This document shows positions 2,648 to 42,671 of a stretch of DNA of 42,851 bases, one piece after another. Under the pieces are notes generated by a model. The model made no database searches. It saw only the letters and a program-made list of their open reading frames with translations, and was not told the origin of the DNA. The stretch is from a virus. How positions within the stretch are numbered: the first letter of the stretch is position 1; each line of letters starts with the position of its first letter. Location of the stretch: positions 1 to 42,851 of the IMG/VR virus record IMGVR_UViG_3300021387_000151. One strand, 5' to 3'. Made by a program: the position numbers and the translations under genes.

Positions 2648-3945
2648 TATTCCTTGATGCCGACGATGTCGCAAGCGGGGCGAACGCGAAACCCGCCGCA
2701 GGCGAACGAGTTGTAGAGGCCGCCAGACGAACTCACGCAGAACACGCTGTAGGCACCGCCGCGATAAGGCGAACGCAGGAACACGCCCTGGGGAGTTGTC
2801 TTGGCGTTAATCGCATAAGAGCGCATCTGCGGGAACGTCTGCCACAACGGGAGTCGGGTGTTGGAACCGGACGCAAGACGGTTGTAGGGCCACACCTCGC
2901 CCTCCTTGCCGTTGACGCTCGCTTCGTTGCAAACGATGTTCATCTCTTCAAGAGACGGCAGGTAAAACTTCGGGTAGCAGGTGACGATGTTCGGCACGTC
3001 GGACGTGCCGCCGTCGCATACATAGTTCGTGCAGGTGTCCACGCGCAGGCCACCGATAACGGAAAGAAAATCATCGGAGAAGCCCTTGAGGAAACCCTGT
3101 TTGTCATTCAGCGTCCCATCGGCGAACGGCGCGCACGGAATATGGTCGAACTTATCGCGCGGTTTCCAGACCTCGCCGAACTTTGCTGCATCGCTGTTGA
3201 GGTATTGAAAAACATCTGAATCATCGGGACGATTCGAACCGTACGCGCAACGCTGCAAACAATTGAGGTCACCGTTAGGCTTGTCGCTGAGGAATGTTCC
3301 GAGATTCGTACCCTCGCCGCCCTCGGTAACAGAAACGGTCTCGGCAGCGGAAGTCGCAGTAGCGGATGCAAAGTTGTACACCTTCCACTGCTCCGGCTTT
3401 TGATCCCACGTTCCGAAGAAGCCGAGCAACTGCCCACCAGCGGGAAGCGCCTTGGTGAGCGTAAACTGGTAGGTCTTACCGTTGACAACAGTTCCCTGCG
3501 AAAATCCCATAGTTACGTTATAGGTGCCAGCGGCAAGACCGCCCTCGCCCGCCACATAGAAAGCGGAGCGAGCGTTGTACGTGGTTTCGAATGGCAGCGT
3601 GTAGTGCCACTGAAGCGTCATCTTCGGCAGGGTGTTTCCTGCGTTGTTACGTTTGGTGCCAAATGCCACGATATCGAGCGGCACGGGGTACTCTGTCGTT
3701 CCATCGCTCCAGTTAACGATGAACTGGTCTCCGATACTGAACACATTCTGAGCAAGACCGCTGGCAACGATATTCTTGACGGTGTTCCAGTCCATCGTGG
3801 AGTCGAGAACTCCGTTGCGTACGAGCTGGGCCATGAGCGCGTTTTGGGTATTAACGCCATTCACAAGCTCCTTCAGCGTGGCATCGCTTGCCAGCGGGTC
3901 TTCTACTACGACATAGTTCTCGTCGTTAGCGTTCTCGTCATCCAT
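2647..3945 (-). CDS. Putative receptor-binding protein / distal tail fibre
   Basis: 432 aa, last large tail gene. The C-terminal part (FYLPSLEEM...VFLRSPYRGG...GGFRVRPAC) resembles the surface-protein module with the LPS..E...WLRSP...VRPA pattern (DUF6273/DUF1566-like). Confidence 0.55.
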   Translation of the reverse strand: MDDENANDENYVVVEDPLASDATLKELVNGVNTQNALMAQLVRNGVLDSTMDWNTVKNIVASGLAQNVFSIGDQFIVNWSDGTTEYPVPLDIVAFGTKRNNAGNTLPKMTLQWHYTLPFETTYNARSAFYVAGEGGLAAGTYNVTMGFSQGTVVNGKTYQFTLTKALPAGGQLLGFFGTWDQKPEQWKVYNFASATATSAAETVSVTEGGEGTNLGTFLSDKPNGDLNCLQRCAYGSNRPDDSDVFQYLNSDAAKFGEVWKPRDKFDHIPCAPFADGTLNDKQGFLKGFSDDFLSVIGGLRVDTCTNYVCDGGTSDVPNIVTCYPKFYLPSLEEMNIVCNEASVNGKEGEVWPYNRLASGSNTRLPLWQTFPQMRSYAINAKTTPQGVFLRSPYRGGAYSVFCVSSSGGLYNSFACGGFRVRPACDIVGIKE

Positions 3946-30704: not shown

Positions 30705-31823
<1,119 letters not shown>

Positions 31824-39121: not shown

Positions 39122-39289
39122 CTAGTAGTACATGCCGCTCGGCGCGGTGCCCTCGATTCTTCCAGCGATAGCGAGCAACATAAGCAGAACGACAGCGCAA
39201 ATAATGCTTTGCTTGCGTTCGCTCTGCTTGCTCCACCACCAACTGGCTTTGTCAAATGCCACCAGCGCCAGCGTGCTGATATAATCCAT
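39122..39289 (-). CDS. Small membrane protein (55 aa, not in the ORF track)
   Basis: GGAGG plus 6 nt precede the ATG. Translation MDYISTLALVAFDKASWWWSKQSERKQSIICAVVLLMLLAIAGRIEGTAPSGMYY. Confidence 0.5.
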   Translation of the reverse strand: MDYISTLALVAFDKASWWWSKQSERKQSIICAVVLLMLLAIAGRIEGTAPSGMYY

Positions 39290-39315
39290 CTGAGACCTCC
39301 TTTCTGTCGGGTCTG

Positions 39316-39351
39316 AAAGCCGTTTCCTTGTTGCTAGCTCGGGACGGCTTT
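39316..39351 (-). terminator. Stem-loop after the excisionase-type gene (attenuator candidate)
   Basis: 8-bp arms AAAGCCGT / ACGGCTTT with a 20-nt loop, directly after the stop at 39353. Confidence 0.3.
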
Positions 39352-39352
39352 T

Positions 39353-39571
39353 TTAGTTTTCATTCATCCAGCGGTCGAACTCGCTCACGCTGATTAGCGC
39401 GTTGCGCTTCCCGTAGGTCTTGAACTTCAAGCGTCCCGCCTTGTGCTCCGCATACAAGGTGGAGCGCGGAACGCCCGAATAGAGCGCCGTCTGACGGACT
39501 GTGTACGCCATTTGCGGTTTCAGCCCGGCGGCTATAGCGAATTGCAGCGCTCGACTTTGCATCTCTTCCAT
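39353..39571 (-). CDS. Excisionase/AlpA-type (MerR-like HTH_17) DNA-binding protein
   Basis: YTVRQTALYSGVPRSTLYAEHKAGRLKFKTYGKRNALISVSEFDRWM. SD GGAGGTG. Confidence 0.6.
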   Translation of the reverse strand: MEEMQSRALQFAIAAGLKPQMAYTVRQTALYSGVPRSTLYAEHKAGRLKFKTYGKRNALISVSEFDRWMNEN

Positions 39572-39667
39572 GCTTCACCTCCTAGAGCCGCCAGCGCGAT
39601 ACTGCCTAGGTACGCAATCAAAAGGGCTATACAAATTTCCTTATGACACGGCAGTACCGCGTTCGCG

Positions 39668-39700
39668 GTTCTATAAGGGTTCTAGAAGGTTTCTAGAAAT
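39668..39700. repeat. Three tandem 11-bp units containing the palindrome TTCTAGAA (operator-like)
   Basis: Units GTTCTATAAGG, GTTCTAGAAGG and TTTCTAGAAAT have one helical turn periodicity. They lie about 100 bp upstream of the excisionase-type gene. Confidence 0.6.
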
Positions 39701-40190
39701 GCGCCCCAGCGCCATGCGGTACGTATCCTGATTTGCTTATAGGCGGACTGAGAACTAATCGAGAACTTACGATGGCTTGATTAGCGGATACGCACCACGT
39801 GACGCTGGGGCTTGATAGGGGTTCACGGTATGGGAACGTAAACCCGAATACCGATAGATGCGTGGGATACGCGGTCATTTCCTACCGCGCTACGGCTCTC
39901 CACGCTTACCGCCAGCCCGTGGGCTGGAATCTTGGGTTCGCCTAGCCAGCTCAGGCTAGACTCGCGCGTTGGCGCTCCCTCCCGACTGTTCGCCCACCCG
40001 CGCTCGTTGACCCTCGCAAGGGGCGTTCTTGGCTCGGCTAGCAGTGGAGGGTATGCGGTTCTCAAGGGGCGCTATCTCCCTTTGCGTCCCGCTCGCACCG
40101 TACTGGCGAGTGTGGTTGGCCCGATCGCAGGAGGCATGTTCACGTAGAGAGGTTCGTGATTCGCCAGTGCGGCGCGTGCGAAACGCATGT
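39701..40190 (-). ncRNA. Candidate large structured RNA or structured early-operon leader (no family assigned; strand tentative)
   Basis: No protein-like ORF. Ungapped long helices 39703..39728/39786..39811 and 40083..40111/40159..40187, plus several local hairpins. Most mismatches become G-U in minus sense. Confidence 0.4.
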
Positions 40191-40216
40191 TTGATAAATC
40201 AGTGGTTGGTTACAAC

Positions 40217-40453
40217 CTAATTACGTTTAACGTAATCGTTGCCGTAAATAAAAAAGCCGACAGCATCAACGAGAATCGGCTTCGCAGTATCAGATAGGTT
40301 CCGATACAGTGATTTAAGCTCAGCCAATCGAAACTCTGCTGGGTTTAACTCTCGCTGAGCATATGTAACTCGGGACAATCCGCAGGCACTACCAGCATCT
40401 TCACATGTCATGCTGGATGCCTTGCGTGCTGCACCGAACTTTTCCTCATGCAT
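40217..40453 (-). CDS. Cro-like HTH protein, divergent from the repressor
   Basis: 78 aa with SD AAGGAGGAG. HTH segment MTCEDAGSACGLSRVTYAQRE. Confidence 0.6.
   Translation of the reverse strand: MHEEKFGAARKASSMTCEDAGSACGLSRVTYAQRELNPAEFRLAELKSLYRNLSDTAKPILVDAVGFFIYGNDYVKRN
40219..40235. promoter_or_regulatory. Perfect 17-bp palindrome ATTACGTT-T-AACGTAAT (operator-type site)
   Basis: It has the same half-site as the two arms in the switch region and lies in the last codons of the cro-like gene. Confidence 0.5.
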
Positions 40454-40481
40454 TGGCTCCTCCTTTCTTCTCGCCTGGTTT

Positions 40482-40548
40482 AGTGTAAACCGTAATTACG
40501 TTAAATGCAACGAACAATCTGAAAAATATTTTTAACGTAATGTATAAT
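40482..40548. promoter_or_regulatory. Divergent switch region: operator half-sites plus candidate promoters
   Basis: ATTACGTTAAA (40495..40505) and its reverse complement TTTAACGTAAT (40531..40541). Plus strand: TG-TATAAT at 40541..40548, 25 nt before the repressor ATG. Minus strand: -35 TTGCAT (40505..40510), 17-nt spacer, -10 TACACT (40482..40487). Confidence 0.5.
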
Positions 40549-40573: not shown

Positions 40574-41239
40574 ATGGGCATACCTGAGAACATTGACGCT
40601 CTTCTGGTCAAGTTTGATATGACACCAGAAGGTCTAGCTCGAATTGCCGGTGTTACAACAGCTACTGTTTCAAGGTGGAGGACTGGTAGCACCGAAGCTA
40701 TACGCCCTAAAACGTTGAACCGCATATGTGAAGCGCTGGAACTTGAGCCAGATGATATTGTTTCAGATCAAAACGGCCTTGCCGCTAAGGAACACGGTCG
40801 TATTCCAGACGGAGCTATCAAACCCTGTGCTTCTGAACCCGCCTACGCTCCCCTACTAGGCCGCGTCCACGCAGGAGAAGCCCAGGAGCCTGATGTATTG
40901 CAGGATGCAGTACCCGTACCATACGAAATCATCAAGCGCCATCCGCAGGGCTATTTCCTACAGGTGGAGGGCGATTGCATGGATAACGTCTATCCCGAGG
41001 GCTGCTACATCCTCATAGACCCCGAGCAGCGCCCCTCAAACGGCTCTATAGCGGTCGTTAGCATAGATGGAGCCGACTATGTAATGCGCCGCCTGTATCG
41101 CGGTGCCAACACGCTGATACTGTCCCCTGATTCGCATAACGCCGAACACGAGGACATGGTATTTGCCGCCACCACCGAACACACGGTGGAGTTCCACGGC
41201 ACAGTCGTATGGTTCCAATCGTCAAAGGAGATGGAGTAA
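40574..41239 (+). CDS. CI/LexA-like repressor (XRE HTH plus S24 peptidase-like domain) with substituted catalytic positions
   Basis: N-terminal HTH (LARIAGVTTATVSRWRTG). The C-terminal VEGDCM...YILIDPEQ...YVMRRL aligns with lambda CI VEGNSM...LILVDPEQ...FTFKKL. Confidence 0.8.
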   Translation: MGIPENIDALLVKFDMTPEGLARIAGVTTATVSRWRTGSTEAIRPKTLNRICEALELEPDDIVSDQNGLAAKEHGRIPDGAIKPCASEPAYAPLLGRVHAGEAQEPDVLQDAVPVPYEIIKRHPQGYFLQVEGDCMDNVYPEGCYILIDPEQRPSNGSIAVVSIDGADYVMRRLYRGANTLILSPDSHNAEHEDMVFAATTEHTVEFHGTVVWFQSSKEME

Positions 41240-41540: not shown

Positions 41541-42671
41541 ATGCCACGTTCATCATGGGGAACCAAAACCAAAATCGACAAGAACAAGTGGCGCATCAGG
41601 TGGTGCGAGTGGGACGGTCTCAACCGCGTTCGCCGCTCAAAGACGCTCTACCCCTGTACCTCGCGCGAAGCCGACGATGAGTTGCGCCGCCTTTGGCAAC
41701 TCCATCACTTACCGCCCAATGAGCGCGTAGTGCCGTGTCCCACGTTCGCCCAATGCTGGGACGAATGGTATTTCCCACAGCTTGAAAAGCAGCTTGAGAC
41801 TGGCGATATGTCGCGCAGCACATTCGTCAACTACCGTAGCGCATGGAGGTCAAAGGTCTCGCCGAAATGGGCAAACGTTGCCATGAATAAAGTGAGAGTT
41901 GAAGAATACCAACGTTGGTTGGACAAGTTCACTGCGGCACAGGCTCACGTCTCGCATATCATCATTCTCAATCTCGTCAACTGTGCGAGACTTCACGATG
42001 TGGACGGCATTTCTTTTATCGATGCAAAATACAAAATGCCGCGCGAAAAGAAAAGCTCAGGCGACAGCGGGCTAGAAGTCTACACGGTAGCCGAAATCGA
42101 CAGCATCCTTGAATCGTTGCGAGGTAGTCGCATCGAGGGCGTTGTGATTCTAATGGCTAAAGGCTCATGTCGTGTTGGCGAAGCAGCGGCAGCAGCGGTG
42201 AAAGACATTACGTTTGATGAATACAATGGTCGCACGTACGCCGTCTACGACCTTTATCACCAGTATTCTCAGCACAATAGCTTTGAACCGCTTAAGACAG
42301 CAGAAAGCCGCCGTGCAATCATCATTCCACCACCATGGAGCTTGCGGCTCGCCGAGATAGCAAAGCAGCGCACAGAAGACCAAGAGCTATACATCTGCGA
42401 CAAAGGCACGGGAATGCCGATTGATCGCAAGAGGATTACAGGTGAGTGGCTCAGCTATTACAGGAATGGAACGATTGACTTGCGCTACCTGACCATGACC
42501 AAGTTGCGCAACTCATGGGCCACGGCAATGCTTTGGAAATACGGAATTCCCGCACAGATGGTGGACAAAATGATGGGCCATGCCGCGAAAAATATTCTCG
42601 GCAAACACTACGACCGCCCCGACAAAGAACTGTTCATCGAGACGGTCGATAAGGCTTACTTCGGAAATTAG
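41541..42671 (+). CDS. int: Tyrosine integrase
   Basis: 376 aa. N-terminal arm-binding-like WRIRW..., C-terminal LRNSWATAML...MGHAAKNILGKHY (R...H..Y region). It sits at the genome end next to repeat-rich non-coding DNA. Confidence 0.8.
   Translation: MPRSSWGTKTKIDKNKWRIRWCEWDGLNRVRRSKTLYPCTSREADDELRRLWQLHHLPPNERVVPCPTFAQCWDEWYFPQLEKQLETGDMSRSTFVNYRSAWRSKVSPKWANVAMNKVRVEEYQRWLDKFTAAQAHVSHIIILNLVNCARLHDVDGISFIDAKYKMPREKKSSGDSGLEVYTVAEIDSILESLRGSRIEGVVILMAKGSCRVGEAAAAAVKDITFDEYNGRTYAVYDLYHQYSQHNSFEPLKTAESRRAIIIPPPWSLRLAEIAKQRTEDQELYICDKGTGMPIDRKRITGEWLSYYRNGTIDLRYLTMTKLRNSWATAMLWKYGIPAQMVDKMMGHAAKNILGKHYDRPDKELFIETVDKAYFGN

Follow-up and report, generated by a model that had tools for sequence, protein, structure and literature searches.

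Genomic setting of the segment

The window, by which we mean the whole stretch of 42,851 nt that was analysed, is a temperate-phage genome or prophage with a G+C content of about 56%. An integrase gene and a CI-type repressor gene lie at its right end, and divergently from the repressor runs a cro-like ORF, for which no Pfam match was obtained. Beyond the cro-like ORF comes the segment studied here (39572-40216), which leads into a short gene of the excisionase family, hereafter the HTH_17 gene, and into the early genes that follow it (Table 1). The HTH_17 product matched PF12728 (E = 9e-8), phrog_66 (excisionase and transcriptional regulator) and TIGR01764 (excisionase family of DNA-binding proteins), and a profile made of this protein and its homologues matched PDB entry 4j2n, Gp37, which we take to be a mycobacteriophage excisionase (E = 3.7e-4). 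After the HTH_17 gene, the first gene of the early operon, there is a conserved hairpin with compensatory changes (39310-39350), which looks like a terminator for antisense transcription, because its T-run is on the opposite strand. No sense-strand terminators were identified in the early operon, and ARAGORN reported no tRNA or tmRNA genes in the window.

Table 1. Genes, boundary elements and RNA parts at the locus, with the parts of the RNA given from 5′ to 3′.
Feature	Positions	Strand	Remarks
Tyrosine integrase gene	41541-42671	plus	right end of window
CI-type repressor gene	40574-41239	plus	HTH and S24 peptidase domains; right end of window
cro-like ORF, 78 aa	40217-40453	minus	divergent from the repressor gene, upstream of the RNA
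Terminator-like hairpin	40245-40282	minus	AAGCCGA-15 nt-TCGGCTT, then TTTTTATTT; inside the 3′ end of the cro-like ORF, upstream of the RNA
Immunity-operator palindrome, third copy	40219-40235		ATTACGTTTAACGTAAT; repeat family D1
Inferred transcription start region	40208-40219	minus	candidate −10 TAGGTT (40214-40219), then conserved GUAACC (40208-40213); by eye from alignments
Structured RNA, putative leader, whole (about 640 nt)	39572-40213	minus	z = −6.8, homologues, consensus structure, covariation
5′ domain	40083-40187	minus	helix B (40161-40187 / 40083-40109) and two capping hairpins
Small hairpin	40064-40082	minus	AAGGG..CCCUU
Junction	40052-40063	minus	GAGAACCGCAUA; after the AAGGG..CCCUU hairpin
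Variable domain	39976-40051	minus	long form in window
Central core	39860-39961	minus	c1, c2 and nested c3/c4
Hairpin c1	39940-39961	minus	central core
Hairpin c2	39912-39927	minus	central core
Nested hairpins c3/c4	39860-39905	minus	invariant loop AGGAAAUG, junction GGCGGUAAGCGUGGAGAGCCG
Optional hairpin insertion	39824-39858	minus	present only in the window, L016 and L012
Helix A domain	39703-39811	minus	26-bp outer helix, inner hairpin 39754-39785, internal loop 39729-39753
Linker	39674-39702	minus	UUCUAGAA-type repeats, 1 to 3 copies among homologues
3′ helix	39583-39673	minus	39650-39673 / 39583-39606, inner hairpin 39617-39647; base extends onto the Shine-Dalgarno sequence
Shine-Dalgarno sequence and start codon	39569-39582	minus	GGAGGUG (39576-39582) and AUG (39569-39571) of the excisionase-family gene
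Excisionase-family (HTH_17) gene, 72 aa	39353-39571	minus	the RNA leads into this gene
Early genes, including AAA_24 and Prim-Pol primase		minus	after the HTH_17 gene, all on this strand

The segment does not code for protein and folds better than shuffled controls

A first-pass annotation, made from the sequence of the window alone, had proposed that 39572-40216 is free of protein-like ORFs and encodes either a large phage non-coding RNA or a structured regulatory leader. The homologues described below bear out the first point, as their longest frames differ in strand, frame and position. A conserved frame or a 3-nt periodicity among homologues would have refuted the proposal; neither was found, the substitutions being distributed over the three phases as 42/36/35. 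Only four of the 28 indel events are multiples of 3 nt, while 24 are not, and the indels correspond to whole structural modules, namely a swapped hairpin domain, an optional hairpin and variable numbers of UCUAGAA repeats. A hidden small protein-coding gene, for which one can cite open frames of 60-170 codons on both strands that are expected at 56% G+C, is hardly credible, given that no frame is kept across the homologues, that most indels would break one, that 3-nt periodicity is lacking and that the ATG at 40188 is CTG in most copies.

The 645 nt in minus sense fold with −276 kcal/mol, compared to −225 ± 7.5 for dinucleotide shuffles (z = −6.8), and in plus sense the whole segment obtained z = −4.0 (20 shuffles for each sense). 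Folding no better than shuffled sequence, another outcome that would have counted against the proposal, is clearly not what was observed. Parts of the segment were assessed with 200 shuffles and gave z = −7.8 for the 3′ half, −3.8 for the 5′ domain and −2.6 for the centre. A mechanical search for inverted repeats recovered, with matching coordinates, the two long helices that had been traced by hand in the first-pass annotation (repeat I2 is helix A and I3 is helix B), and its repeat I1 is the 3′ helix.

Homologues are found in Collinsella prophages and gut contigs

BLASTN of the segment found nothing similar among GenBank phages or PLSDB plasmids. A protein-anchored search of IMG/VR yielded six contigs with the RNA, and a 20-mer of the conserved core was found at five places in GTDB genomes (four in Collinsella and one in a MAG labelled Clostridiales) and at seventeen places in human-gut metagenomes. 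Homologues of the downstream HTH_17 protein led to further copies (L039-L042 and L046). The main type consists of about 26 distinct sequences from Collinsella prophages and human-gut contigs, which are 79-93% identical to the window. Where hosts are named they are Collinsella (Coriobacteriia, Actinomycetota), and one copy, L020, belongs to a prophage whose host genome is recorded under a strain name, Collinsella sp. CM84Y_54, and not as a MAG. Two loci reported by the 20-mer genome scan (L015 and L021) were false positives that share only a 21-mer inside a methyltransferase gene, and none of 33 extra IMG/VR loci collected with a degenerate core pattern matched the covariance model.

Divergent versions were found by nhmmer and covariance models. 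Four divergent subtypes were counted beside the close copies; those described here are subtypes 2 to 4 and a tentative mini version. Subtype 2 (L043, a contig that starts inside the element) has the core, helix A and the 3′ helix, and subtype 3 (L051 and L052) is full length. In subtype 4 (L095-L101) the helix A domain, the junction motif and a 3′ helix are present with a different centre, and the mini version (L050) has only helix A and the 3′ helix. The size of the RNA ranges from 560 to 650 nt.

The RNA travels with the HTH_17 gene, and not with cro or cI. In all four subtypes it abuts an HTH_17 homologue, while the tentative mini version abuts another first early gene and the HTH_17 gene is second. 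The cro-like ORF is common to only one of the six IMG/VR loci, whereas the RNA is common to all six, and the same RNA is found downstream of at least five different operator and cro modules; the cro-like ORF is part of an interchangeable immunity module, not of the RNA module. The RNA is absent from some HTH_17 homologues. Those at 49-58% identity (L007, L044, L045, L047, L048, L053, L054 and L102-L115) had no element under models R1, R2 or R3 or by nhmmer. At L007 a tRNA-Arg gene occupies the analogous place.

Compensatory changes support an RNA read on the early-gene strand

Structure at the RNA level is conserved on the strand of the early genes. RNAalifold, applied to 22 main-type copies (alignment A2), gave 147 pairs, almost none of which is broken, and one-sided G-C/G-U/A-U series appear in several of the helices. 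A core covariance model was built from main-type sequences only and comprises hairpins c1, c2 and c3/c4 and the helix A domain (62 pairs). This model matched the divergent L051 and L043 over its full length, with 118 and 83 bits, respectively, and subtype 4 over the helix A half. In an alignment of 31 sequences 99.1% of the cells are standard pairs and 23 of the 62 core pairs are changed on both sides (20-23 across two tests). Any of the observed covariation measures was reached by none of 500 column shuffles, and when the 3′ partners were slid by 1-3 columns pairing fell to 34-42%, with 0-7 compensated pairs. Compensated pairs are present in each of the six modelled helices, and in helices 1-4 all cells (100%) are paired and 10 of 29 pairs are changed on both sides.

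Compensatory pairs beyond both shuffled and slid controls are the criterion for a structured RNA family, and this criterion is met; their absence would have spoken against the first-pass proposal, which relied in part on helix A, and helix A is among the helices supported. Two caveats apply: the covariation alignment, in which only four subtypes are represented, was fitted by the covariance model, and no more than three or four lineages contribute the divergent information. The MFE folds of the divergent L051, L043 and L101 (z = −8.2, −4.0 and −5.4, respectively, as single sequences) independently show the elements in the same order. The ACCGC/GCGGU closing helix and candidate pseudoknots, such as CUCUCUAC with GUGGAGAG, are invariant in the present set. 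The RNA is narrow in its distribution, yet strongly supported as a genuine structured RNA family.

The modelled pairs include 164 G·U cells and two A·C cells. Because G·U so far outnumbers A·C, the RNA is read on the minus strand, in the sense of the early genes, as the G-U bias of a few hand-traced helices had led the first-pass annotation to expect. Pairing is therefore selected on the minus strand only, and neither a DNA cruciform nor a plus-strand transcript accounts for it. It is thus very improbable that the inverted repeats act at the level of DNA, for example by forming an origin of replication, cruciforms or palindromes for protein binding. The arms of the repeats are indeed long (24-29 bp), and TTCTAGAA-type palindromic repeats and an operator copy are found in or beside the segment. 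However, the pairing is kept on one strand, the compensatory changes keep intramolecular pairing and not sequence, and the number of TTCTAGAA repeats is anywhere from 1 to 3, while subtypes 2-4 have none.

The RNA is built of conserved and exchangeable modules

Helix B of the 5′ domain, one of the two long hand-traced helices, is present and 81% complementary, and covariation says nothing about it either way, because it is almost invariant in the main type. Two divergent subtypes have equivalent long helices at the same place; this comparison (CACUGG/CCAGUA in the main type, CAUUGG/CCGAUG in L051) is by eye only, as the divergent subtypes could not be aligned by MAFFT in the 5′ domain. The loops of the capping hairpins (40140-40159 and 40119-40135) have CCUCU and CCUCC motifs. 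Among main-type copies the 5′ domain has a pairwise identity of 98.8%, with 12 of 136 columns variable, compared to 85.6% at the third codon positions of the adjoining gene, 47 of 72 of which vary, and within the domain loops and junctions are constrained as much as stems.

The junction that follows contains a motif, CUU..A.AAC.G.AU, which recurs in subtypes 2, 3 and 4. The variable domain next to it is swapped for a shorter, unrelated hairpin in 10 of the 22 distinct A2 copies; the stems of its long form covary (CCCUCC/GGGAGGG to CCAUCC/GGGAUGG), and its apical part, CAAGAACG-hairpin-CAACGAG, is common to L043 and L051. A long-range helix that had been suggested between 39895-39903 and 40044-40052 could not be supported, as its reported 5′ partner is in this domain, absent from 10 of 22 copies, and pairs locally in the MFE fold. 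The central core is kept in subtypes 1-3, swapped out in subtype 4 and missing from L050, so that no single sensor core is universal. Three local hairpins that had been seen by eye here (39870-39889, 39912-39927 and 39942-39959) were confirmed and covary as helices 4, 2 and 1, respectively. A fourth, at 39819-39845, is real but turned out to be an optional insertion, found in three of the 22 distinct A2 copies.

No module is more widely conserved than the helix A domain: of model R1 this part alone matches subtype 4, and model R3 finds helix A in L050. The outer helix, first drawn by hand at 39703-39728 / 39786-39811, is 85% complementary, with eight of 24 pairs changed on both sides; the inner hairpin that it had been thought to enclose (39754-39760 / 39779-39785) is present and covaries, and the internal loop is conserved. 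In the 3′ helix two pairs show an A-U to G-U to G-C series. In L043, where the 3′ helix is kept with 24 bp, both partners are changed in about four pairs and a single partner in three others (counted by hand), and model R2 matches L051 immediately after helix A. Across subtypes, then, the most conserved modules are the two gene-proximal hairpins, helix A and the 3′ helix, and not the 5′ part. A string, GGUGCGAGCG, which we took to resemble the 530 region of 16S rRNA, was discarded, as the likeness is at chance level (about one such 10-mer is expected).

The RNA extends from an immunity-specific operator to a ribosome-binding site

The RNA starts just after an immunity-specific operator and runs without a terminator into the ribosome-binding site of the excisionase-family gene. 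At the upstream side conservation begins at or just after GUAACC. A palindrome is found immediately upstream of the RNA in every locus, and its sequence differs, with at least five immunity types. In the window it belongs to a repeat family with two other copies, 40494-40511 and 40524-40541, both between cI and cro. The segment had been described as bracketed by operator-type repeats; this is correct for the palindrome but not for 39668-39700, which is no shared operator but the variable-copy UCUAGAA repeat inside the RNA. The terminator-like hairpin within the cro-like ORF was omitted by our scan because its loop exceeds 8 nt. An equivalent hairpin with a T-run precedes the element in most main-type loci, and the type IV loci L020 and L029 are without it. 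By eye, the sequence abutting GTAACC is a TAnnnT-like hexamer in each of the immunity types I, II and III and a TATA-rich stretch in L051, while a sigma-70 consensus scan called no promoter in front of the RNA.

From the upstream palindrome, the hairpin with its T-run and the TAnnnT-like hexamer we infer an operator-controlled promoter that would be dedicated to the RNA, with transcription starting in the region given in Table 1. The first-pass annotation had assigned transcription of the segment to the early promoter at 40482-40510. As a terminator-like hairpin and an operator lie between cro and the RNA, transcription from its own operator-controlled promoter appears likelier than read-through from the cro promoter, an inference drawn from sequence.

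At the downstream side the conserved block ends at the Shine-Dalgarno (SD) sequence and ATG of the HTH_17 gene in every main-type copy. No terminator was detected between the RNA and the gene, by scan in the window or by eye in the subtype sequences, so that the generic criterion for a leader (same strand, contiguous with the gene, no intervening terminator) is met. In main-type leaders the 3′ helix reaches the SD sequence with its base, through pairing of CUUAU with AGGAG, and the 5′-terminal UUUAYC pairs with GRUGAA between the SD sequence and the AUG. The latter pairing has one compensated change and five wobble variants, and the long-range pair 27/654 occurs as C-G, U-G and U-A. The SD sequence of subtypes 2 and 4 is covered by a local hairpin, CCAC(C)/GGUGG, and that of subtype 3 by a CGACC/GGUCG hairpin. 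In seven leaders from four subtypes the SD core is predicted to be mostly paired, with partners that differ by subtype. Different platforms with the same outcome at the SD sequence suggest that the leader controls translation initiation of the excisionase-like gene. The evidence for such control, which rests on predicted pairing, is soft: the probability of being unpaired is 0.29 for the SD sequence in the window and 0.44 ± 0.16 for 27 other window genes, about one standard deviation lower and not significant, and in L039-L042 the SD sequence is outside the 3′ helix.

Comparison with known RNAs

The first-pass annotation could not place the element in any known family, and our searches led to the same result. 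Rfam 15 gave no match for the whole window at gathering thresholds and no family match at E ≤ 10 for 39300-40500 and three divergent copies, where the only hits were chance-level microRNA-hairpin matches far below gathering scores. With the covariance models of ROOL and GOLLD there was no match in the whole window, nor at E ≤ 10 in 39300-40500 and the three divergent copies, and for riboswitch classes and T-box leaders in Rfam there was none in the window, 39300-40500 or these copies. Group I and II introns, RNase P RNA, 6S RNA, tmRNA and tRNA were without Rfam or ARAGORN matches, and for c4 antisense RNA there was no Rfam match and no matching repeat family in the window. No description of the RNA was found in the literature searched. 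The RNA represents a structured family that is absent from Rfam 15 and undescribed in that literature. The precedents named earlier (GOLLD, ROOL, P4 CI RNA and HK022 put) hold as analogies; membership of those that are in Rfam does not.

Functionally, the closest analogies are the leader of lambda N and put of HK022, on the strength of their position behind an early promoter. The lambda N leader contains nutL and an RNase III-sensitive hairpin next to the ribosome-binding site of N. Like the Collinsella-phage RNA as we read it, this structured 5′ leader precedes the first gene of an early operon under repressor control and has a long hairpin that abuts the SD sequence, so that translation, as is established for lambda, depends on structure or processing. 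The Collinsella-phage RNA differs in being about three times longer, with many more helices, and in preceding an excisionase-like gene and not an antiterminator gene; the sequences are unrelated, and no N-like protein or boxA/boxB motif was recognised in the context of the Collinsella-phage leader. The put RNA of HK022 is a cis-acting RNA for processive antitermination, located directly downstream of the early promoters. The likeness is one of topology only, two tandem stem-loops right after a promoter, which here is inferred; put measures about 70 nt, compared to about 200 nt in total for the tandem hairpins here, to which 350-450 nt are added in most copies.

Another structured RNA, the int-alpA motif, precedes integrase and AlpA-type HTH genes in prophages of Proteobacteria, and here too the RNA is 5′ of a small Xis/AlpA-type HTH gene in prophages. 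That motif is much smaller and from another phylum, and the Collinsella-phage RNA has no Rfam 15 match. The P4 CI RNA and the c4 RNA of P1/P7, both of which serve RNA-based immunity, are similar in that a temperate phage encodes them in its early leader region or produces them from it by processing. In the present phage the repressor is a protein, for which an S24 peptidase domain and matching operators were identified, and repeated target sequences of the seqA/seqB kind were not seen. By size and prophage origin, the nearest analogues would be ROOL and GOLLD, large ornate prophage RNAs of the type studied by cryo-EM (PMC12286853). Like these, the RNA is prophage-borne, longer than 500 nt, of unknown function, and has many conserved helices and variable peripheral elements. 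ROOL and GOLLD are separate RNA genes, often near tRNA genes, while the Collinsella-phage RNA is a 5′ UTR that ends at the SD sequence and is found in a different host phylum, Actinomycetota (Coriobacteriia).

Interpretation

Both alternatives of the original proposal, a large phage non-coding RNA or a structured regulatory leader, concern an element that we find to be non-coding, supported by covariation, of minus sense and of no known family. Between them we prefer, with moderate confidence, that the early lytic operon of temperate phages of the gut bacterium Collinsella has in this segment a large, modular, structured 5′ leader, which gates expression of the excisionase-like gene; its assignment as a 5′ leader rests on topology, and its function is inferred. 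On loss of the repressor, the promoter overlapping the operator would fire and the nascent leader would fold, forming the 5′ domain with helix B, the central core, the helix A domain and the 3′ helix. The base of the 3′ helix (CUUAU/AGGAG) and the 5′-terminal UUUAYC (with GRUGAA) may then occlude the translation start of the excisionase-like gene, and as a consequence of this proposed occlusion the gene would be translated only once the leader is remodelled or cut. Three helices of 24-29 bp look like RNase III-type substrates, by analogy with the lambda N leader. The leader would in this way time the production of the excision factor, or keep it low, in relation to the integrase, and it may in addition stabilise the long early mRNA or condition it in some other manner. 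In the absence of expression data the promoter, the transcription start, the processing and the trigger of the leader are all inferred.

Against masking as the sole role, about 600 nt with near-invariant loops far exceed what is needed to mask a ribosome-binding site, and size and conservation suggest more than an ordinary leader. A second role therefore remains open, either as a processed stable RNA with its own activity or through an effect on the elongating polymerase. It is possible, and clearly less favoured than the leader reading, that this is a large ornate RNA with an activity of its own (a sensor, scaffold, self-assembling particle or ribozyme), which would couple the excision or lytic decision to a cellular signal and whose functional centre would be formed by the central core (GGCGGUAAsCGUGGAGwGCCG ... 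AGGAAAUG) together with the near-invariant 5′ domain.

Equally tentative is a free-standing, ROOL/GOLLD-like RNA, cut from the early transcript or forming its stable 5′ part, which would act in trans or via tertiary or quaternary structure during lytic growth, its position serving only expression. The size of 560-650 nt and the number of helices are within the range of large ornate prophage RNAs (PMC12286853), the 5′ domain is near-invariant beyond the needs of pairing, loops and junctions included, peripheral hairpins are gained and lost as modules, and palindromic single-stranded motifs (CGAUCG, UCUAGA) could, judging from sequence, mediate self-association; the statistical weakness of SD occlusion also leaves room for this explanation. 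However, no subtype has a terminator or an obvious 3′ end before the gene, linkage to the start of the early operon is strict, the ROOL and GOLLD models found no match, and conservation across subtypes is highest in the two gene-proximal hairpins and not in the ornate 5′ part.

We consider it unlikely that the leader acts on RNA polymerase in the manner of put or EAR, conferring resistance to terminators further down the early operon. Its location immediately downstream of the inferred early promoter is that of put sites, its minimal conserved unit is a pair of tandem stem-loops (helix A and the 3′ helix), and the first gene is followed by the conserved hairpin at 39310-39350 with its compensatory changes. 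Yet the two stem-loops, of 95-110 nt each, are several times larger than put, the T-run of the 39310-39350 hairpin gives it the look of an antisense terminator, the early operon has no identified sense-strand terminators, and no antitermination RNA in Rfam was found to resemble the leader.

Few bacterial or phage RNAs longer than 500 nt are known to have a conserved architecture, and each of these has opened a line of work. Three points make the present RNA convenient to study: it occupies a well-defined place, with the immunity switch on one side and an excisionase-family gene on the other, one copy lies in a prophage of the named strain Collinsella sp. CM84Y_54 (L020), and natural modular variants, including the tentative mini version with its two 3′ hairpins (L050), amount to ready-made deletion mutants. 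Every temperate phage faces the problem of making integrase without excisionase on infection and both on induction. If the leader indeed controls the excision factor, it would be an RNA-level answer to this problem and would provide one more regulatory element for the phages of gut Actinomycetota, which are poorly studied.

Variation at the RNA position in related loci

The position of the structured RNA, between the cro-like gene and the early gene encoding the excisionase-like HTH_17 protein, is not occupied in the same way in all related loci. The related phage L007, which encodes an HTH_17 protein of 57% identity, has a tRNA-Arg(CCT) gene (2221-2296) downstream of its cro-like gene in place of the structured RNA. 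One main-type locus (L046) carries ~400 additional bases (3004-3412) between the cro-like gene and the RNA start. A natural mini version of the RNA, reduced to the 3′ helix and the helix A domain, was tentatively identified in L050 at 3296-3512 (matches with E ~1e-4); the next gene downstream of it encodes an HTH_3 protein, and the HTH_17 gene comes after that. Two further matches, L015 2350-2370 and L021 7771-7791, were rejected as RNA copies. Both lie within a methyltransferase-like gene, each in an Eggerthellaceae genome, and share with the RNA core an exact 21-mer (GGCGGTAAGCGTGGAGAGCCx) that is a chance match; a 20-mer scan over 596 Gb yields about one random match.

The excisionase-like homologues of the divergent subtypes (L043, L050-L054 and L095-L101) have an additional N-terminal segment of ~35-45 aa, which is absent from the 72-aa main-type protein (alignment A9). 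A DUF3800 gene (L051 584-1282) adjoins the immunity region of a subtype 3 phage. Elsewhere in the early region of the window, a 369-aa protein (30705-31814, minus strand) matches radical SAM only weakly and below threshold (E = 2.4e-4).

Putative transcription signals near the start of the early operon

Signals and small ORF around the structured RNA and the HTH_17 gene (window coordinates)
Feature	Position	Strand	Remark
Terminator-like hairpin and T-run	40245-40282	-	within last codons of cro-like ORF
Promoter-like site (ATGCCA-18-TG-n-TATAAT), then terminator-like hairpin with T-run	39256-39352	+	
Hydrophobic ORF, 55 aa	39122-39289	-	conserved

The hairpin at the end of the cro-like ORF points to a short, independent transcription unit for cro and to a separate promoter for the early operon. 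The plus-strand signals after the HTH_17 gene would yield a ~60-nt RNA, whose predicted antisense target is the beginning of the hydrophobic ORF together with its SD. Their terminator-like hairpin is conserved and shows compensatory changes. Conservation of the TATAAT may be coding-driven, because it falls within the conserved codons M-D/N-Y-I. The arrangement is reminiscent of type I toxin-antitoxin pairs, or of a small membrane protein under antisense control.
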